The position numbers and the translations under genes were made by a program. Positions 1,700-34,213 of a DNA stretch of 35,977 bases are shown piece after piece; positions within the stretch are counted from its first letter, which is position 1; each line of letters begins with the position of its first letter. Where the stretch lies: the IMG/VR virus record IMGVR_UViG_3300045988_082157. One strand, 5' to 3'. Under the pieces are notes generated by a model. It was not told where the DNA came from. It ran no database searches and saw nothing but the letters and a program-made list of their open reading frames with translations. The stretch comes from a virus.

Positions 1700-3831
1700 A
1701 ACGACGCACCTCCCGCCGAAGGAACGGTCTCCGCCGTCCAGACTCCGTTCACGACCCGTAGGAACTTTCCGTTGTCCGCCGCCGTTACCGCCGGTGTTCC
1801 CGGCTCTCCTTTCGGGCCTCGTTCTCCGGCAGGGCCCTGTTCACCGCGCGGCCCCTGCACACCGGGGTCTCCCTTCGGCCCCTGTGGGCCGGGCGTTCCC
1901 TCCACGTCTGCCCACGTTCCATCGCCACGCAGGAATTTGGTGTTGTCACCGACAGTTGGGTTCGGAACTATTCCTCCAGCTCCGGGCTCGGTGTCGGTTG
2001 CCCCCTTCATTGCGCGGTCTTTCCACACGACATTCACTTTATCGAAATCATTTACTCGTACCTGATATATCTGCTCGTCTCCAGCGCTTTGGAACAGACA
2101 ATACATCGCAGCACCAGGAACCTCAAATATATTTGTGAAGATGCATTTGACGCTTTTTGGTCCCCACACTCCCTGATCCGGATAATTACAAATTGGCAAC
2201 ATGCCGTTTTCTACCGCCGCCCTAATTTCGGAATACGTCTTATCGGCTTTCCATCCTTCGGCTTCACTGCCCGTGATGTTGATGACGAAACTGGATGCCG
2301 CTCCGGGTTCACCCTTGGGGCCTTTGATGTTCACATTATCAGGATTCGGCTTTCCGCCGTCATTCGTCCAAGAGAGGATGCCAGCGGTGCTGACAGAGGG
2401 AGTAAAGGTCGTTCCGTTGGCTCCGTCCTTGCCGTCAGCGCCTTTGGGGCCGACATCGCCCTGTGGGCCAGCGTCACCCTTCGGCCCTTGTGCGCCGTTC
2501 ATCACGTTTGCGGATGTCGTGCCGTTTCTGTCCTTTACGATGATCTTCGCGCCGCCGTTGATCGGCGTGACCGTCGCCTCCGGGCTGTATCCGTCGCTGC
2601 CGTCTTTACCGGCTGCTCCGTCAGCGCCCTTTGCACCGGGATCGCCCTTTTCACCGCGGGACGGCTTCCCGGTATCCTCGTCGCCGAGATACCAGTTCCC
2701 GTTTGCACCGATGGTCGGCGTGATGCCGTCCTTTCCGGCGGGACCGGTCGCTCCATCCTTTCCTGGGTCGCCCTTCTGGCCTTGGATGCCTTGCTCACCC
2801 TGCGGGCCGGTCTTGCCGATGGGGCCGGTATCGCCCTTCGGCCCCTGTTCGCCGGGTTCGCCCTTGTCACCCTTGGGGCCGGGGTCGCCCTTCGCACCCT
2901 GCAACGGGCCGTTGTTTATCCAAGTGCGCGTCACGCCATCATAGATGTAAATGTCATACGGCTCGGACGCGCCAACGCCGTAAGCATCGCCAACGGCAGG
3001 ATTTTTCACAGAGGTTTGGAGCGCAGAGACCGTGCCATAATAGCCCTTTACAACAAAGCCGGAGCCGGTTTCACCCTTCTGTCCGGGGTCGCCTTTGTCT
3101 CCCTTCGGGCCTTGCGGGCCTCTCTCGCCCTGCGGGCCAGTCTCACCCTTTGCTCCGTCTGCACCCTTTTCACCCGGAACACCCTGCGGGCCGGGGTCTC
3201 CCTTGGGGCCTTGTGCTCCGTCCGCGCCGGGGATGCCCTGCGGGCCAGCCTCGCCCTTGAGGTCGGAAACGGCAATCAGGTTTTCCCACGTAACGCCGTC
3301 GCTGGAATACTGGATGTACCCGCCGGATACCCGCATATCAATCGTGCCGCCGCCGGAGCCGCCGCCCGTGCGCGCTGCCTCGTTGATCGCGGCAACAAGA
3401 TTCTCCTTCGCCTTGGTGGTCAGCTCGGACAGGTCGCCGATTTGCCCCTGTATCGCCTCGAACCATGCCTTGCTCGGCGCGTCGGGTGGCGCGTCGCCTG
3501 CAAGCAGAGACGGCGCGCACACCGTGTCGTAGACGCAGGACTTCGCGAGCGTGCCGCCAACGCGCCACTGGAGCTGCGCCTTGCCGTATCCGGAGCACTC
3601 GGTGTCTGATGCGCTGACGGTCCAGAACGCCGTCCTGCCCTCCACAGACAGCGGCACAGGGTAGGCGGCAGCATCCATGCTGGAGATCGGCCGCCGGACA
3701 AGCAGAGCAGGCACGCCGCCCGGCCAATGCGCCTCGAACTCTTGCAGGTCGAAGGCGACACGCAGCGCGTTTTCCTCGCCGGCATGGCGAAGGAAAATGG
3801 GCTCGCGCAAATTTGCATTGATTGTGATCAT
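1696..3831 (-). CDS. Tail fibre with multiple collagen-like (G-X-Y) repeat blocks
   Basis: 711-aa ORF with at least 5 separate G-X-Y tracts (for example GEAGPQGIPGADGAQGPKGDPGPQGVPGEKG). Globular segments lie between the tracts. It sits at the distal end of the tail module. Confidence 0.85.
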   Translation of the reverse strand: MITINANLREPIFLRHAGEENALRVAFDLQEFEAHWPGGVPALLVRRPISSMDAAAYPVPLSVEGRTAFWTVSASDTECSGYGKAQLQWRVGGTLAKSCVYDTVCAPSLLAGDAPPDAPSKAWFEAIQGQIGDLSELTTKAKENLVAAINEAARTGGGSGGGTIDMRVSGGYIQYSSDGVTWENLIAVSDLKGEAGPQGIPGADGAQGPKGDPGPQGVPGEKGADGAKGETGPQGERGPQGPKGDKGDPGQKGETGSGFVVKGYYGTVSALQTSVKNPAVGDAYGVGASEPYDIYIYDGVTRTWINNGPLQGAKGDPGPKGDKGEPGEQGPKGDTGPIGKTGPQGEQGIQGQKGDPGKDGATGPAGKDGITPTIGANGNWYLGDEDTGKPSRGEKGDPGAKGADGAAGKDGSDGYSPEATVTPINGGAKIIVKDRNGTTSANVMNGAQGPKGDAGPQGDVGPKGADGKDGANGTTFTPSVSTAGILSWTNDGGKPNPDNVNIKGPKGEPGAASSFVINITGSEAEGWKADKTYSEIRAAVENGMLPICNYPDQGVWGPKSVKCIFTNIFEVPGAAMYCLFQSAGDEQIYQVRVNDFDKVNVVWKDRAMKGATDTEPGAGGIVPNPTVGDNTKFLRGDGTWADVEGTPGPQGPKGDPGVQGPRGEQGPAGERGPKGEPGTPAVTAADNGKFLRVVNGVWTAETVPSAGGASF

Positions 3832-3868: not shown

Positions 3869-4111
3869 TCACTTCGGATTCCCAAATGCAAACGCCACGA
3901 CCCAGCTGCCGGAGCAGCGGAGGCACACGACGCGGTTTCCTTTTGCAAATGTGAGCCCGGTGTTGCATTTGTAGTGTTTTGCCGTAGCCTCAGCCTGTCC
4001 GTCAAAAATCAGGCTGAGGCCGTCCGTGTATTTTTCTGCGACGGTCGCAAGGCAAAGGCTGCCCTCAGTCTGCGCCGCGCGCGGCCGATACTCTGTCATT
4101 CCATCCAGCAT
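3869..4111 (-). CDS. Small hypothetical tail/baseplate-associated protein (80 aa)
   Basis: ORF with an ATGA start/stop overlap to the upstream tail gene. Assignment is by position within the tail operon only. Confidence 0.55.
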   Translation of the reverse strand: MLDGMTEYRPRAAQTEGSLCLATVAEKYTDGLSLIFDGQAEATAKHYKCNTGLTFAKGNRVVCLRCSGSWVVAFAFGNPK

Positions 4112-5148: not shown

Positions 5149-7453
5149 CAATGCGGATCGCCTCCTCCCAGTCCGCCTGATCAACGGAAAATGTATACAC
5201 GCTGTAAAAACCGCCGTCTGTGCGCTCCGTGAGCTGAGCGAGGCATCCGGTTACCATGCGCCCCTCCGGCGTGCGGACGGTAACAAGGTGGCCGAGCATG
5301 GCCTCCAGCACCGCGCAGTCCTCCTGCGTGTAAAACGCGCAGGCCACCGAGATGCTTTGTGCCATGTGCTCGCTGCGCTCGATCACCGGGTAAGCTCGCC
5401 CGGCGAGCTGGACGGCTTGGACTTCCTGCTTTCGCGTCCGCGACGTCGTCCGATGCGCGCTTTCTGAGTAGGGGAGCGGCAGGATCGCGCCGGTATCCAT
5501 GTCGGACAGCGTGATGTACTGCACCGCGATGGTTGCGGCGACCTCCGGGGACAGGCCATAGTTCGCGCTGCCGCTGTAGCAGCCCCGCACCTGATACCGC
5601 ACGGCGCCGACGCTGGCGGCGTCCGTGAAGCTGCGCTCCGTTGTGCGGCCGATGAGCCGCCCGTCGCGGTAGATCAGGAAGAAATCATAGCTCCCCGTGG
5701 TCTGCCAGGCCAGCAGCGCCGCGTCATCGGCGTCGACCGTCAGAGAGATCGCAGCCCCAGGGACGTTCACAACCTGAAGCGCGGCTTCGCCCCACGGTGA
5801 CCACAGCCCGTATTCGTTCTGCACGCGCACGCGCACAGTGTATGCTCCGTCGGAAAGATACGTCGGGCACGTCCACGTTTTCTCGGTGCCATAGTACACG
5901 CTGCTGACGGGCTGCCCTGCAAGCTCGACCTGGTAGGCAAGCTGTTCGGCAGATTGCCAGCCGACGACTGGGCGCGGCGTCTGAGCGCGGACGGCCAGAC
6001 TGGGCGCGGCAGGCGCGCCGACGCATATAAATTCGGCTGGTTCGCTCCATGCGCCTGCGGCATTGTCAGTGTTGTATGTGCGCACCCGCCAGTATTTTGT
6101 GCCGCCACCGAGCGTATTCGGAGGGGCAGTGTATGTCGTTTCAGCTCCGGTCACGGTTGCCAGCGCGTTCCATGTCTGCTTATCCGCAGATAATTGCAGC
6201 TCGGCCTTTGTCTGCTGCGTTCCGGTTGAGATTATGTGAGCCCACTTAAAAACTGTTGGGCTCGCATTGTCCACGACCTCGCCGTTCGGGGAAACCGCTT
6301 CAGCGCTGGACAGCACCTCCACTGTTGAGAGTTCCATCCATTCGGATGTTGCGGAAATACCTTCCGCAGTGGCCGCCGTTACCTGCCATTGAATTGTGTC
6401 TGTAGTGAATGTTCCGGCAGGTATAGTAACAGATGGCGTTTCACCGCATTGAATTGTGTGGATTGCGGAATTGCTTGAAGACCTCCAGCGGAAGGTTGCT
6501 GTTTTTTGTGGGAGGCGGGTATAGCTGTCGCCGTAATCATTTCTAATTTGGCTGAGCATCCATGTGAACACATTTGGCTTTGTTTTTGCAACATACCCTG
6601 ATGCAGGGCTCGCCGATTTAATTGCTACACCGTATACCTTGTGCTCAAACCATTCCGATGTAACAGTCACACCGTTGTTTGCTGTTGCGACAACGCGCCA
6701 CATAATATCCCCGACAGGGAGCACACCCGGCGGAACGAGAATGTAGCTAGAACTATTCTCATCGGGTTGCGTAGCGGCAATGTCAATATCATGTATGGAG
6801 CTTTCTGTTTTTCGCTTCCATTGCACCTTTGCACTTTGTTGCTTTACTGCTGTGTACGTCACGTTCGAACTCGGAAGTGCGAGCCATGAAATTTTGGTTT
6901 CCGTACCAGCGCCCCATCCAAAATAGTTAGTATCCGTGAAGTTCAGCGTTACGTTGGCATCGTCGAATTCGACTTTCAGCTTGGGTTTCTGTGCATGGCG
7001 CGTTGTTGCAAGAATAAAGTAAATATGAGCGTCAAAAATAGCTCCATTGTCCAAAAAGTATCTAGCTTCCTTTTCGCTGTTGCTCTTGTCCATGATAAAC
7101 GTGTCGGCAGCGTAGCACGGCAAATTGCGTTTTTCGACACCCACGCGGCCATACGTATTTGTTATATCACGGCCCCCAGTTGTATAGGTAATGGCTTCTG
7201 GATCGATCGGCCTATCTATTGAGCCCAAACGTAGAGTTGCATAGGAATCATTGTAAACAAAGGCAACGACATAACAGCTCGCTGTTATACTGATTATCCT
7301 TTTAAACTTATACGAATCTGGGATTTTTTCGAACTGAACGCAAAGATACTGTCCAGATTCATACTGTACCGTTGGCGATGCATGAAAGTTAGTGGTTGGG
7401 CTATTTGGATCAAATGCACCGGATTTAATTCCGTTCAGCGTAAGGAAACTCAT
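5141..7453 (-). CDS. Distal-tail (Dit)-like protein with several FN3/Ig-like repeats
   Basis: 770-aa ORF directly after the tape measure gene. It has recurring modules ending in W-x-V...S-x-W (IMWRVVATANNGVTVTSEW, IQWQVTAATAEGISATSEW, KYWRVRTYNTDNAAGAWSEP, YTVRVRVQNEYGLWSPW). The N-terminal third (about 6380-7453) is visibly more AT-rich. Confidence 0.65.
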   Translation of the reverse strand: MSFLTLNGIKSGAFDPNSPTTNFHASPTVQYESGQYLCVQFEKIPDSYKFKRIISITASCYVVAFVYNDSYATLRLGSIDRPIDPEAITYTTGGRDITNTYGRVGVEKRNLPCYAADTFIMDKSNSEKEARYFLDNGAIFDAHIYFILATTRHAQKPKLKVEFDDANVTLNFTDTNYFGWGAGTETKISWLALPSSNVTYTAVKQQSAKVQWKRKTESSIHDIDIAATQPDENSSSYILVPPGVLPVGDIMWRVVATANNGVTVTSEWFEHKVYGVAIKSASPASGYVAKTKPNVFTWMLSQIRNDYGDSYTRLPQKTATFRWRSSSNSAIHTIQCGETPSVTIPAGTFTTDTIQWQVTAATAEGISATSEWMELSTVEVLSSAEAVSPNGEVVDNASPTVFKWAHIISTGTQQTKAELQLSADKQTWNALATVTGAETTYTAPPNTLGGGTKYWRVRTYNTDNAAGAWSEPAEFICVGAPAAPSLAVRAQTPRPVVGWQSAEQLAYQVELAGQPVSSVYYGTEKTWTCPTYLSDGAYTVRVRVQNEYGLWSPWGEAALQVVNVPGAAISLTVDADDAALLAWQTTGSYDFFLIYRDGRLIGRTTERSFTDAASVGAVRYQVRGCYSGSANYGLSPEVAATIAVQYITLSDMDTGAILPLPYSESAHRTTSRTRKQEVQAVQLAGRAYPVIERSEHMAQSISVACAFYTQEDCAVLEAMLGHLVTVRTPEGRMVTGCLAQLTERTDGGFYSVYTFSVDQADWEEAIRIDA

Positions 7454-32414: not shown

Positions 32415-32945
32415 TTAGGTGGTCGCCGTTGCAGGCTCAACCGTCACCTTCGCAGCACCCCAGCCGGGGCATACGGAGGCGTTCGGCACTACGAGCTTTG
32501 TCAGGCCGAGCAGCTGATTCACCTGGGCCTGGATGCAGCCGATCGTTGCAGTGTTGGTGCCGTTGTACACGGCCTGCTGCATGTTGATCGCCACCTGCTC
32601 CTCCTTGTTCGCGCGGACTTCCGCCGCCAGCTCGATCAAGCGTTTTTCGAGCTTGCTGTAGGAATCAGAGATCTTCCGGTTGGTTTCGTCCTGGCCGCGC
32701 CAGTAGGCAATCTCCATATCCTTTTCCGAGATCGTCTTCTGCTGGTTGAGCTCGTAGCGCGTCACCGGCGTGTTCTCGCTGCATACCGCACCGGCAGCCA
32801 TCGCCGCAGCGGCCATTGGATTTGCTCCGATGCCGCCCCAACCGCCAAGCAGGTTTCCAAGCCCGCCGCCGAGCACGCCGAGTCCGGTTCCAATCGCGCC
32901 GAGCGTCACACCGAGATTGCCCTTTCCGTTACTTGCGTATTCCAT
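32415..32945 (-). CDS. Hypothetical protein with a glycine-zipper N-terminus and a coiled-coil middle (176 aa)
   Basis: GNLGVTLGAIGTGLGVLGGGLGNLLGGWGGIG followed by heptad-like sequence. RBS GGAGG. Confidence 0.6.
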   Translation of the reverse strand: MEYASNGKGNLGVTLGAIGTGLGVLGGGLGNLLGGWGGIGANPMAAAAMAAGAVCSENTPVTRYELNQQKTISEKDMEIAYWRGQDETNRKISDSYSKLEKRLIELAAEVRANKEEQVAINMQQAVYNGTNTATIGCIQAQVNQLLGLTKLVVPNASVCPGWGAAKVTVEPATATT

Positions 32946-33044: not shown

Positions 33045-33076
33045 CAAAAAACAGCCACCCCATACAGGGCGGCTGT
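33045..33076 (-). terminator. Rho-independent terminator downstream of the NYN gene
   Basis: The minus strand reads ACAGCCGCCC-tgta-tGGGGTGGCTGT followed by TTTTTTG. Confidence 0.7.
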
Positions 33077-33088
33077 TGCATAGGATGT

Positions 33089-33796
33089 TTAATTCTGTTT
33101 TTCGATCGGAACGATTATTTTTTTATGTTCTCGCTTCTTCCAACACGATTTAAGCCCATCGATGTGCTCGAATAAATCCTTTGGGATTGTCGCCTCCATT
33201 GGGTCAAGGATGAAGTCAATCCCTTCCCGTCTGGCCAGTTTTGCTGCTGGTACGAAGTCGCTGTCGCCCGCAAGCAAGATTATCTGATCCACTTGCTTTT
33301 TGTAAGCTAACGATGCAATATCCAATCCGATGCGCATATCAACGCCTTTTTGGTTGAAGGAAATCGTAAAGTCTGATTCTTTCAAATCATCAACGTTTCG
33401 CTCTTTTCGGCACAGCGCCTTTGTTGCATCCGCGGAAAGTGCAAAGTGTGCACCGGCGTCAGACAACCGCCCCATCCGAAGTGCGACCTTGCGCTTCTTT
33501 TTCAATTCCTCAAAAAATGCATTTGCCCAACGGTAAGTATCGGATTTCCCGAAGTCGATCCCGCGCTTCAACGCCGGGTGATAGACTGTCTTTTTGAGCG
33601 GCGGGCAATCGTAATAGAAGATACGATACAGTTCACGTTCTTCTCTGTGATCATTGTCCTTTCCCTCGTCGCGAATATGCGTCATGCAATAGGCATACAA
33701 TTCGTTTGCACGGTCAATCGGGCTTTTATCGCCCCGAAGGTAAAACGCTCGCTTTCTGTAAAATGCACCATCTACAAGAATCGCTGTCTTTTTCAT
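33089..33796 (-). CDS. NYN (LabA-like, PIN-fold) domain protein, putative RNase
   Basis: ILVDGAFY, GVDMRIGLDI and ILLAGDSDFVPA motifs in the NYN order. The gene is visibly AT-richer than the rest of the phage and has its own promoter and terminators. Confidence 0.8.
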   Translation of the reverse strand: MKKTAILVDGAFYRKRAFYLRGDKSPIDRANELYAYCMTHIRDEGKDNDHREERELYRIFYYDCPPLKKTVYHPALKRGIDFGKSDTYRWANAFFEELKKKRKVALRMGRLSDAGAHFALSADATKALCRKERNVDDLKESDFTISFNQKGVDMRIGLDIASLAYKKQVDQIILLAGDSDFVPAAKLARREGIDFILDPMEATIPKDLFEHIDGLKSCWKKREHKKIIVPIEKQN

Positions 33797-33921
33797 ATGT
33801 CAGCTCCTAAAAAATGATGAAGCCCCCGGTTGCAGCATTCCCCGTATGAATGGGGTGCTTAATACCGGGGGCCTGTTAATGGCACAACGGACGTAGTAAA
33901 CAAACATTACTTTCGTTGTGC
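33797..33921 (-). promoter_or_regulatory. Structured ~120-nt leader of the NYN gene (two consecutive stem-loops, the second followed by a U-run)
   Basis: Stem 1 is GCACAACG (33882-33889) / CGTTGTGC (33914-33921). Stem 2 is GCCCCCGG (33822-33829) / CCGGGGGC (33865-33872), with an inner CCCC/GGGG helix. The A-run at 33809-33814 gives U6 on the transcript, just before the AGGAG RBS. Confidence 0.4.
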
Positions 33922-33925
33922 TTAT

Positions 33926-33954
33926 ATATTATGACAGCGAAAATTCAATGTCAA
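33926..33954 (-). promoter_or_regulatory. Near-consensus sigma-70-type promoter for the NYN gene
   Basis: The minus strand reads TTGACA-17 nt-TAATAT. Confidence 0.6.
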
Positions 33955-33980
33955 CCCATTTTGAAAAATTTAATATTCAA

Positions 33981-34003
33981 GAGCCGCCCTATCCGGGCGG
34001 CTC
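33981..34003 (-). terminator. Hairpin terminator at the end of the lysis/regulator operon
   Basis: GAGCCGCCC-tatcc-GGGCGGCTC spans the stop codon of the 74-aa gene. AT/T-rich sequence follows on the minus strand. Confidence 0.55.
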
Positions 34004-34213
34004 CTTTGCATGCTCCCGCAGTACATTCATGCACCGCGCTATGATCTTCTTGACGCCGTTTACGCTCAAGCCCTCGCGCTCGGCAATGCGCTCATGGCTC
34101 CAATCGTCAAGGATCTTCCGTTTCAGGATCGTCCGGTATCGCTCCGAAAGAATCCATTCGTCGATCAAATGCTCCCAATCGCTGCGGCCCAGACTCGGAA
34201 GCCCCCGCAGCAT
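33989..34213 (-). CDS. Small sigma-70 region-4-like HTH protein (74 aa)
   Basis: LSERYRTILKRKILDDWSHERIAEREGLSVNGVKKIIARCMNVL pattern. Strong RBS AAGGAGG. Confidence 0.6.
   Translation of the reverse strand: MLRGLPSLGRSDWEHLIDEWILSERYRTILKRKILDDWSHERIAEREGLSVNGVKKIIARCMNVLREHAKEPPG

Follow-up and report, generated by a model that had tools for sequence, protein, structure and literature searches.

Type III toxin-antitoxin loci combine one promoter, a structured RNA, a Rho-independent terminator and an endoribonuclease gene; they are carried on mobile elements, occur in abortive-infection contexts, and their antitoxins are tandem repeats processed by their own toxin. The window analysed here, by which we mean the whole 35,977-nt stretch of IMG/VR record IMGVR_UViG_3300045988_082157, contains at 33045-33954 a cassette that an earlier note had likened to such loci. 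The likeness stands for the order of elements, which is that of ToxIN, AbiQ/antiQ, CptIN and TenpIN: a promoter is present, followed by a structured RNA, a terminator (weak in the window) and a putative RNase gene. It does not extend to the parts themselves, since the RNA is a single hairpin without repeats and the protein matches NYN, a PIN-like family, and not ToxN_toxin or the ToxN/AbiQ or CptN/TenpN fold. The leader has no tandem RNA repeats, as the note had stated, and no direct repeats either: Tandem Repeats Finder gave no result, and the sole match of a repeat search is a 10-nt element that occurs twice, in the promoter region. The resemblance nevertheless fits the comparative data, because in one relative (L133) a genuine ToxIN, with 36-nt repeats and a Pfam ToxN gene (E=1e-49), replaces the NYN gene behind the same leader RNA. 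The literature on type III toxin-antitoxin systems searched together with NYN returned nothing relevant.

Two further groups of described systems come close. Phage lambda carries rexAB in the slot next to its repressor, and the cassette resembles rexAB and the P2-type hot-spot morons in having its own promoter and terminator and a deviant composition, in having relatives that adjoin a repressor or an integrase, and in a cargo that swaps with Abi and toxin-antitoxin genes. Unlike rexAB, the window cassette sits after the lysis genes, outside the immunity region, and its protein family is unrelated to RexAB. The known bacterial NYN proteins include non-toxic RNases, e.g. Rae1/YacP and LabA, while the mRNA of Regnase-1 contains a stem-loop that Regnase-1 itself cleaves, a precedent for recognition by an NYN enzyme of a hairpin in the transcript that encodes it. 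With the NYN RNases (Rae1/YacP, LabA, MARF1, Regnase-1) the window protein shares its match to Pfam NYN and a set of invariant acidic residues of the kind seen in PIN-like nucleases; it differs from them in that its C-terminal half alone matches Pfam, in an insert of ~120 aa, and in that no solved structure is matched by sequence or fold.

The closest described relative of the leader RNA is Rfam TEG147 (RF03535), which has the same hairpin plan and the common apical sequence ACCCCAuUCAUACGGGGAAU, as well as a predicted sarcin-ricin motif that is common to most of the wider family. However, TEG147 is described as a Staphylococcus sRNA, and the window copy has AUUA/GCA instead of AGUA/GAA. According to PMC13085918, JAR3D gives Rfam TEG147 a sarcin-ricin motif. 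Teg147 of S. aureus is an annotated 60-nt sRNA and is listed among the sRNAs defined by their own promoter and terminator in PMC5826253. The available excerpts of the literature mentioning Teg147 contain no link to NYN genes or phages.

Boundaries of the cassette and its NYN-like protein

All features of the cassette lie on the minus strand. The sigma-70-type promoter claimed in the earlier note is present at 33926..33954 (-), with a -35 TTGACA (33954-33949), a 17-nt spacer and a -10 TAATAT (33931-33926), which amounts to 10 of 12 consensus matches and would place the transcription start near 33919. By itself such a match is not significant, since 5 kb contain 3 such sites where 2.6 would be expected. 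Of 116 distinct homologous loci, 91 have a comparable promoter in the corresponding place upstream of the hairpin. At the other end, 3' of the NYN stop codon, the predicted strong terminator was recovered as an intrinsic terminator at 33045..33076 (-), with an 11-bp G+C-rich stem and U6 (-22.1 kcal/mol, z=-3.1); it is absent from the list of a simple terminator scan. The claim of an upstream terminator held only in part. A strong hairpin is present at 33979..34005 (-), overlapping the stop codon of an upstream 74-aa ORF (-23.5 kcal/mol, z=-5.6), but a proper U tract is absent: the hairpin is followed by UUGAAUAUUAAAUUUUU and was not listed by the terminator scan either. Because of this poor U tract we regard it as only a possible weak terminator, and insulation from late transcription is therefore doubtful.

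Between 32900 and 34100 the GC content is 0.44-0.50, compared with 0.58-0.63 on either flank, in agreement with the previous description of an AT-richer gene. Thus, the cassette can be called self-contained, as had been proposed, with its own promoter and terminator, an AT-richer composition and a gene for an NYN-type protein. In the manner of phage morons, the gene moreover occupies different modules from phage to phage and is absent or replaced in related loci.

The predicted nuclease gene, NYN/LabA-like, occupies 33089..33796 (-) and encodes 235 aa from an ATG start, with an AGGAG ribosome-binding site (33804..33808, -) 7 nt before the ATG. The NYN/LabA motifs on which the gene had been singled out (ILVDGAFY, GVDMRIGLDI and ILLAGDSDFVPA) are all present in the translation. 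Pfam NYN (PF01936) matches the protein above its gathering threshold (40.2 bits, cut-off 24.2; E=6.2e-10) with an alignment confined to aa 131-197, i.e. model positions 56-124 of 145, in the C-terminal half; the ~120-aa insert lies between motif I and the remainder of the protein. The protein is a full-length member of PHROG 5783, a family of unknown function (E=4e-89), and has ~200 relatives at E<=1e-30 and ~1,000 at E<=1e-10 among 50%-identity cluster representatives. Across 43 homologues (67-83% identity), D9, D153, D159, D178 and D180 are invariant, an acidic set that covers the N-terminal D of the beta1 motif, the D of the GVD motif and the GDSD motif. An AlphaFold2 model was obtained with a pLDDT of 84.9, and its best structural neighbours in BFVD are predicted models of viral NYN/LabA-like proteins (TM 0.40-0.50, probability 1.0). 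Foldseek against the PDB returned no NYN structure and only generic Rossmann-like matches (TM <=0.37), and sequence and profile searches of the PDB found no relative. The assignment to NYN is thus a predicted one, made from an HMM whose match lies in the C-terminal half and from TM values of 0.4-0.5 to models that are themselves predictions.

The leader and its second hairpin

The leader (33925..33797) folds into two hairpins, as the earlier note had drawn it, at -47.9 kcal/mol (z=-5.2), a value equalled by 0 of 200 shuffles. Hairpin 1, the 5'-proximal one, is an inverted repeat at 33882..33921 (-), GCACAACG ... CGUUGUGC, of -13.5 kcal/mol (z=-3.3). The TEG147-class structured RNA follows at 33811..33881 (-) and consists of a UUAACAG 5' flank and hairpin 2 (33874-33820), of -34.4 kcal/mol (z=-5.6). 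Its outer stem, GGCCCCCGG/CCGGGGGCU, leads to an internal loop of AUUA (33863-33860) and GCA (33833-33831), then to an inner stem and to an apex that reads CCCC-AUUCAUAC-GGGG-AA. The tail reads UUCAUCAUUUUUU, with UCAUCA followed by U6 at 33814..33809. Since UCAUCA parts the U6 from the stem, the window copy lacks a canonical terminator tail; the stem is strong, but the U tract is weak and displaced, whereas in most relatives the U tract comes directly after the stem. A 35-codon ORF running through the leader from an ATG at 33903 was dismissed as spurious, because the hairpin 1 region that holds its start codon varies among relatives.

Of the two stem-loops, hairpin 2 proved functionally meaningful, as the earlier note had suggested for it, while hairpin 1 is conserved in a subset only. 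It recurs with compensatory changes at the stem base only in L005/L007, L011, L014, L106, L177 and L217, and was also recognised by eye in L063 and L066-L070; the remaining loci have unrelated short 5' hairpins in its place. Hairpin 2, by contrast, is conserved and covarying before nearly all homologues, with compensatory changes in 15-17 of 16-18 pairs. Given 22 distinct copies aligned by MAFFT without regard to structure, RNAalifold predicts the hairpin, with compensatory changes in 15 of 16 pairs. With the hand-drawn structure, 86% of the cells pair, compared with 55% when the partners are slid by one column, and double changes occur in 17 of 18 pairs, the observed score being reached by 0 of 500 shuffles. 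A set of 75 distinct copies from species-representative genomes shows 83.8% pairing against 55% when slid, and 289 double-change cells against 99 in shuffles. As judged from this covariation, hairpin 2 is a conserved structured RNA rather than a local oddity.

The relation to TEG147 came from a permissive search. At gathering thresholds no Rfam family matches the whole window; RF03535 scores 39.0 bits (E=5.6e-6), below its gathering score of 56.1 bits. Other sub-threshold Rfam matches (ceN48 snoRNA, BSR0602, mir-245, Phe leader, RcsR1) were put down to chance. Our own covariance model, R1, matches the window with 75.8 bits (E=6e-18). The RF03535 gathering score is passed by three relatives directly before NYN genes (L138, 80.9 bits; L123, 62.9; L113, 58.3), and also by L084 and L118, which are orphan copies, i.e. 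copies without an NYN gene. The window copy is therefore a divergent homologue within a wider family, of which the Rfam TEG147 model covers only part.

The consensus of the family hairpin combines a sarcin-ricin-like internal loop, AGUA/GAA, with the apex CCC-NNNAUAN-GGG-AA and a U tract; besides AGUA/GAA and the AUUA/GCA of the window, the loop variants include GAUA/GAUA and AAUAG/CGUUC. In the alignment the AGUA/GAA, apical AUA and CCC/GGG columns were called nearly invariant with the window clade as an outlier; counted over its 41 distinct rows, which include 4 weak matches that are not aligned, the bulged-G column is G in 26 and the middle GAA column is A in 31. With AUUA/GCA, the window clade departs at both of the most conserved internal-loop positions. 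The UUAACAG 5' flank and the loop and apex sequences persist from Bacillota to Actinobacteria and Proteobacteria. Of 116 distinct copies, 103 (89%) have six or more T residues among the 10 nt that follow the stem, and since the family stem is directly followed by this U tract the hairpin looks like an intrinsic terminator. The suggestion that the leader could be an attenuator or riboregulator thus fits the comparative data as far as the family hairpin and its direct U tract go, but finds no support for an alternative fold: inspection of the leader by eye revealed no antiterminator or alternative pairing, and no conserved pairing of the apical loop with the ribosome-binding site or start codon.

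Linkage of the RNA to NYN genes and genomic slots

Of 75 loci fetched through the NYN protein, 72 have exactly one strong match to model R1 (41-83 bits), immediately 5' of the NYN ORF, and the same is true of the window. Matches before NYN are likewise found in Lactococcus phage Bacchus (49 bits), Moraxella phage Mcat4 (32 bits) and Burkholderia phiE202 (30 bits), where the NYN gene occupies different phage modules and still has the RNA on its 5' side. The reverse does not hold. Among 110 distinct copies from a conserved-pattern scan with enough downstream sequence, 36 lack NYN and 6 adjoin a disrupted NYN gene. Close NYN homologues are hardly ever without the RNA, whereas the RNA is often without NYN. 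As about one third of the pattern-matching copies have no NYN, the RNA is more than a 5' UTR reserved for that gene. Orphans include the S. aureus-type TEG147 copies, which have no NYN gene after the RNA, and 23 of 35 orphans have a good promoter. Both arrangements meet in Kallipyga gabonensis, which has two RNA copies, one before NYN and the other before an integrase. In enterobacterial NYN homologues a different, terminator-like hairpin without AGUA/GAA stands at the same place, and the motif is therefore not universal for the NYN protein family. Altogether, this co-occurrence suggests that the leader RNA and the NYN nuclease probably work as a pair.

In most of the relatives examined the NYN gene lies in lysogeny, moron or defence slots. 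It immediately follows the cI/LexA-type repressor in enterobacterial phages, lies between repressor and integrase in Streptococcus phage Javan85 and sits beside the integrase and a toxin-antitoxin pair in phiE202; the exception is Mcat4, with NYN between terminase and coat genes. In NYN-less copies the slot is filled by ToxIN, Abi_2, HicAB, Phd/YefM, an integrase, an MNT-type nucleotidyltransferase or a PBECR4 nuclease, and such replacements identify it as a defence and toxin-antitoxin hot spot.

Proposed mechanism and alternatives

We propose, with a probability of roughly 45%, that the cassette is a leaky terminator plus a leader RNA holding a toxic NYN RNase in check, with a role in defence. 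It would be a mobile, self-contained unit of temperate phages made of a constitutive sigma-70 promoter, the leader RNA, the NYN gene and a terminator. The TEG147-class hairpin would act as a leaky intrinsic terminator at which most transcripts stop, and therefore a small stable RNA would be produced in excess while NYN mRNA would come from read-through only. The non-helical parts of the RNA are conserved in sequence across phyla, which suggests recognition of the RNA by a protein inherited along with it, most likely NYN. The RNA might then restrain NYN either by inhibiting it like an antitoxin, in the manner of type III systems, or by serving as operator or substrate in autoregulation. Given its place in a phage defence and toxin-antitoxin slot, NYN would most likely be a toxic RNase, possibly used for superinfection exclusion or abortive infection. 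AUUA/GCA and the displaced U tract may make termination less efficient in the window phage and weaken any binding that depends on the loop.

A bolder and tentative extension, which we consider rather doubtful as a whole, is that promoter, TEG147-class RNA and NYN make up an unrecognised, type III-like class of abortive-infection systems with a PIN-like toxin. The antitoxin would be a single sarcin-ricin-loop hairpin made in excess by premature termination, and the orphans with intact promoters, including S. aureus Teg147, would be relics, or active decoys that shield the phage or host from competitors' NYN toxins. If the RNA does neutralise NYN, RNA-antitoxin systems would gain a toxin fold and an RNA architecture that are both new to them, and PHROG 5783 a function. 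Besides, a narrow Rfam family is widened to a broad phage RNA motif with clear covariation, hosted by Bacillota, some Actinobacteria and Moraxella and Burkholderia phages; the S. aureus sRNA Teg147 gains a genomic origin and a testable partner, and a candidate RNA-controlled nuclease module is added to prophage defence hot spots.

The reading of a checked toxin has to be weighed first against a plain cis-acting attenuator or insulator, in which a leaky terminator and RNA stabiliser limits a costly nuclease with no NYN-RNA interaction at all, and the conserved loops matter for how efficiently the terminator works, for the stability of the RNA or for a general host factor. The U tract in 89% of copies and the constant position of the hairpin between promoter and ORF agree with it, as does the failure to see, by eye, an alternative pairing that would hint at ligand control; the unrelated enterobacterial hairpin at the same place even suggests that a generic architecture may outweigh the specific motif. 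However, a terminator needs no invariant AGUA/GAA, apical AUA or UUAACAG across Bacillota, Actinobacteria and Proteobacteria, and orphans often retain a promoter with nothing left to attenuate. We therefore hold this explanation to be possible but unlikely.

The same orphans could instead point to an autonomous sRNA gene, encoding a trans-acting phage sRNA or decoy, for which NYN would be just the commonest neighbour and the RNA an anchor for recombination at a hot spot for cargo genes. Many of the 36 NYN-less copies have intact promoters, Kallipyga gabonensis places its second copy before an integrase, and Teg147 is expressed independently in S. aureus without a following NYN gene. Orphan copies with promoters fit an independent RNA function as well as an orphan antitoxin. 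What makes this alternative improbable is that the RNA accompanies NYN in 72 of the 75 loci found through the protein, on unrelated backbones and in unrelated positions, which is unexpected for a backbone sRNA; no trans target candidate emerged.

Still less probable, in our estimate, is that NYN is neither toxin nor defence protein and is instead an RNA-processing or housekeeping-type nuclease for phage expression behind an ordinary 5' UTR. The existence of non-toxic NYN RNases such as Rae1/YacP and LabA speaks for it, together with the weakness of the PADLOC matches (1.8e-5 for 'NYN' on the 235-aa protein) and a search of the literature on NYN with prophage or anti-phage topics, which found nothing tying PHROG 5783-type NYN proteins to defence. 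On the other hand, the lysogeny, moron or defence slots of most relatives examined, Mcat4 excepted, the patchy distribution, the repeated disruption of NYN or its exchange for toxin-antitoxin or Abi genes, and a constitutive-type promoter of its own speak against this view. Finally, a riboswitch-like attenuator with ligand-controlled terminator and antiterminator folds would account for a structured leader and a terminator-like element before the ribosome-binding site, but is highly improbable for a single compact hairpin with a region 5' of it that varies between loci, no riboswitch match in Rfam and no antiterminator sequence complementary to the 5' arm seen by eye.

The integrase-adjacent hairpin was also considered as an attP or host-gene reconstitution segment. 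This was rejected because in Kallipyga (L192) the hairpin is located within the prophage 5' of int, with the immunity genes on its other side, and because the hairpin also occurs mid-genome in phage records.

Anatomy of the NYN cassette and its protein

The window carries a complete small transcription unit on the minus strand, running from 33954 to 33045, and the window sequence confirmed all coordinates and motifs reported in the earlier note. The promoter TTGACA-17-TAATAT (33954..33926) is followed by a two-hairpin leader, a NYN ORF of 235 codons (33796..33089) and a terminator composed of an 11-bp G+C-rich hairpin and a U6 tail (33076..33045). The consensus match of the promoter is on its own at chance level, with three promoter-type sites found in 5 kb vs 2.6 expected. 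The leader of about 123 nt folds at -47.9 kcal/mol (z=-5.2 vs shuffled controls) and consists of hairpin 1 (33921..33882, minus strand) and hairpin 2 (33874..33820, minus strand; -34.4 kcal/mol, z=-5.6). The second stem-loop followed by U6 (33814..33809, minus strand) ahead of an AGGAG RBS is present as described, but a UCAUCA spacer separates the two elements. A 35-codon ORF (33903-33796, minus strand) extends from an ATG in the loop of hairpin 1 to a TGA overlapping the NYN RBS; it is probably spurious, since the hairpin 1 region with its start differs among relatives.

GC content is 0.44-0.50 across the cassette vs 0.58-0.63 on either flank, so that the gene is indeed AT-richer than its neighbours. 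The hairpin previously taken for an upstream terminator (34005..33979, minus strand) is strong (-23.5 kcal/mol) but has a poor U tract, and insulation of the cassette from late transcription is therefore uncertain. Around it lie genes for an Amidase_2 endolysin, for a 74-aa sigma-70 region 4 protein and for a convergent large serine recombinase, together with three small ORFs of no assigned function, one of them DUF7841; this gene content places the cassette at the lysis-to-integration end of a temperate phage genome. The same gene is present in near-identical IMG/VR contigs of about 40 kb. The 74-aa ORF (33989-34213, minus strand), directly after the endolysin, consists solely of a sigma-70 region 4/YlxM-like helix-turn-helix (Pfam Sigma70_r4_2, E=2.5e-8), and its stop codon falls in the loop of the strong hairpin. 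Just 3' of the NYN terminator, a 176-aa protein (32415-32945, minus strand) displays a Gly/Ala-rich N terminus, while its C-terminal part resembles a coiled coil; neither Pfam nor PHROG gave a match, and NCBIfam only a faint one, to ZorA_3 (E=0.0024).

The Pfam NYN domain is matched above threshold (E=6e-10) within aa 131-197 only, while the full-length protein matches PHROG 5783 ('unknown function', E=4e-89) and thus belongs to a known, uncharacterised phage family; PADLOC gave weak matches only, to its 'NYN' model and to HEC-09. Residues D9, D153, D159, D178 and D180 are invariant across 43 homologues, as expected from a predicted PIN-like acidic centre. AlphaFold2 modelled the protein with confidence (pLDDT 84.9, pTM 0.78). 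Sequence and fold comparison revealed no meaningful neighbour among solved structures, and among predicted viral structures those nearest to the model belong to NYN or LabA-like proteins (TM 0.40-0.50). In a word-indexed search the family counts at least 8,000 proteins at E<=0.001; representatives of 50%-identity clusters number 202 at E<=1e-30 and 1,076 at E<=1e-10. The assignment as a divergent NYN-type nuclease is well supported, and the protein is presumably an RNase.

A conserved, covarying leader hairpin

In a permissive search, hairpin 2 matched the S. aureus small RNA TEG147 (Rfam RF03535) with 39 bits (E=5.6e-6), below the gathering score of 56.1 bits, and the apical segments of the two are almost identical. 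Comparison of the 200 nt upstream of NYN homologues uncovered a leader plan shared nearly everywhere, which begins with a sigma-70 promoter, followed by a short 5' hairpin that varies between loci and by UUAACAG. The family hairpin then has an outer stem of 7-9 bp, whose sequence is free to vary while pairing is kept, the internal loop 5'-(N)AGUA(R) / 3'-(Y)GAA(N) and, above a short inner stem, the apex CCC(C)-NNNAUAN-GGG(G)-AA; beyond it a U tract precedes the RBS and the ATG.

The earlier note had proposed that the leader be checked for covariation across homologous loci, and the hairpin proved both conserved and covarying. From 22 distinct copies aligned without regard to structure, RNAalifold recovered the hairpin with compensatory changes in 15 of its 16 pairs. 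When the structure was made explicit, 86% of cells pair vs 55% with partners slid by one column, double changes occur in 17 of 18 pairs, and none of 500 shuffles reached the observed score. For a set of 75 distinct copies taken from species-representative genomes, the share of pairing cells is 83.8% vs 55% when slid, with 289 double-change cells vs 99 expected, this alignment having been fitted to the model and hence biased in favour of structure. The hairpin holds under all three tests, and its loops are conserved in sequence.

The family to which the window RNA belongs, as a divergent member, is otherwise known just as a small RNA of S. aureus. In the window copy the internal loop reads AUUA/GCA instead of AGUA/GAA and the tail is the least U-rich of the family, from which we infer that read-through would be higher in this phage and that a loop-dependent interaction may have shifted.

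The RNA with and without its gene

The RNA is near-obligate before NYN. R1, a covariance model built here for the hairpin 2 RNA, gave exactly one strong match in the window, immediately 5' of the NYN ORF (75.8 bits), and a single strong match at this position in 72 of the 75 loci retrieved via the protein. The other three are L004, from an E. coli lambdoid phage, L074, with a 37%-identical homologue, and L051, whose hairpin variant reached 15.5 bits once the filters were switched off. The motif stands in front of NYN in three named phages too: in Lactococcus phage Bacchus (49 bits), in Moraxella phage Mcat4 (32 bits), where the cassette has its own TTGACA-17-TATAAT promoter and lies between terminase and coat genes, and in Burkholderia phiE202 (30 bits), next to an integrase. 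Promoter, RNA and gene therefore travel together over phage types and bacterial phyla.

In the literature, Teg147 is a 60-nt sRNA encoded on a genomic island, and its GC content is unusually high by S. aureus standards. It is counted as one of the 'bona fide' sRNAs, a class defined by possession of a promoter and a terminator of its own; the passages mentioning it give neither function nor target (PMC5826253, PMC3053349). A sarcin-ricin motif was predicted in it by JAR3D (PMC13085918). In the passages of the literature that mention 'Teg147', we found no link to NYN genes or phages. At the Rfam threshold TEG147 was detected in three loci with an intact NYN gene after it (L138, L123, L113), and in two S. 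aureus-type contigs with none (L084, L118). In the S. aureus-type copies the sequence past the terminator is AAAGGATTGATGCAATAG, which we read as an RBS with a three-codon stub, a putative remnant of the gene start. Besides, the RNA occurs with NYN in S. hominis, S. borealis and S. intermedius, and without it in S. schweitzeri, S. kloosii and S. simulans; in S. intermedius the protein matches as two overlapping fragments, so that the gene there looks disrupted. Most simply, a NYN cassette was lost and S. aureus Teg147 would be its leader RNA, left behind as an orphan. In L118, a yjdF azaaromatic riboswitch (98.9 bits; 2933-3033) precedes the orphan by about 1.1 kb.

Scanning with an exact pattern of the conserved nucleotides gave 88 loci from IMG/VR and, from species-representative genomes, at least 120; such a pattern leaves decayed copies uncounted. 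Removal of chance matches lacking the outer stem left 116 distinct hairpins among the matches listed, 91 with a promoter-like site upstream and 103 with at least six T in the 10 nt past the stem. That the hairpin is a plain leaky terminator or insulator would agree with such tails, and has to be set against the conserved loops; we regard it as possible, if doubtful. Orphan RNAs are frequent and some NYN genes are disrupted: for the 110 hairpins with enough 3' sequence among the matches listed, the NYN gene downstream is intact in 68, frameshifted or truncated in 6 and absent in 36. A good promoter is retained in 23 of 35 orphans examined among these matches. That the sRNA is autonomous and NYN just happens to lie beside it often would suit these orphans and sits less well with the protein-retrieved loci; we consider it rather improbable.

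Downstream of some orphans lies directly a tyrosine or serine recombinase; others precede Abi_2, HicA/HicB, Phd/YefM, an HTH-MNT nucleotidyltransferase, a PBECR4 nuclease or a DUF4160 pair. In L133 (IMGVR_UViG_3300029547_000018, 3140..2650, minus strand) a complete type III ToxIN system stands behind an orphan hairpin identical to that preceding NYN in L081, L083 and L230. This ToxIN has its own promoter, three tandem repeats of about 36 nt, a terminator and the gene for ToxN (Pfam PF13958, E=1e-49), and has taken the place of NYN in the slot. The NYN gene lies between cI and N, directly after the repressor, in E. coli ev099, the slot that houses rexAB in lambda; it directly follows a LexA-family repressor in Proteus phage Brookers and lies between repressor and integrase in Streptococcus phage Javan85. 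From this cargo and these positions, the cassette has its home in prophage defence/toxin-antitoxin hot spots, where the ORF is often swapped while the RNA is retained.

Further loci add to this picture of the slot. The PBECR4 gene of S. simulans (L220, about 5500-6100; 192 aa, at +341 nt from the orphan) encodes a Barnase/EndoU/ColicinE5-RelE-like nuclease, a further nuclease carried in this slot. In Kallipyga gabonensis (L192, NZ_CXYV01000001.1, 3697-5901) the order is repressor, ImmA-like protein, RNA, NYN, second RNA copy and integrase, with 32.9 bits for the copy before NYN and 61.6 bits for the copy 36 nt before the start codon of the tyrosine integrase; L124 likewise has two copies in one prophage. 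The Kallipyga layout rules out the hairpin as an att-site remnant. L054 has a second, degenerate copy (3998-4066, minus strand; 39.7 bits) without AGUA/GAA, on the opposite strand between NYN and integrase and with no associated ORF.

A candidate RNA-controlled nuclease

The gene is almost never found without the RNA, while the RNA often stands without the gene or beside a broken one. This asymmetry may reflect a toxin-antidote pair, and is also consistent with a gene merely needing its own promoter and leader. We propose that most transcripts would stop at the hairpin, yielding a small RNA in excess over NYN mRNA, and that the hairpin loops could form a protein-recognition surface read by the co-inherited NYN protein. 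The RNA might then restrain NYN, either by inhibiting it in the manner of a type III toxin-antitoxin system or by serving as an autoregulatory site, and NYN would be a harmful RNase acting against superinfecting phages. That NYN is instead a non-toxic RNA-processing enzyme would fit the same nuclease assignment and fits less readily with the toxin-antitoxin neighbourhood; we give it little credence. A ligand-controlled attenuator, for which the terminator-like hairpin before the RBS would speak, is very improbable, given that no antiterminator pairing was seen by eye, the region 5' of the hairpin is variable and no riboswitch matched in Rfam.

We thus view the locus as an RNA-controlled nuclease cassette of type III-like design, with a putative mechanism, and as a good experimental target. 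In the literature searched, we found no report of the RNA-NYN link, of the breadth and covariation of TEG147-class RNA, or of this RNA as fixed flank of a defence/toxin-antitoxin cargo slot. The observation made in the earlier note is confirmed and its interpretation partly supported: the likeness to type III loci stands for the layout of promoter, RNA, terminator and nuclease, but repeat searches found no repeats in the window leader, in accordance with that note, and the NYN protein is not of the ToxN fold. A further difference is that the enterobacterial branch (E. coli ev099, Proteus phage Brookers) keeps the same layout, with its own promoter, around another terminator-like hairpin. These hairpins are long (2890-2995 in ev099, L004; 2390-2490 in Brookers, L285) and may give this protein a second family of leader RNA, unrelated to the first; between the two phages, one compensatory change is seen, GCAGA/UCUGC vs GUAGA/UCUAC.
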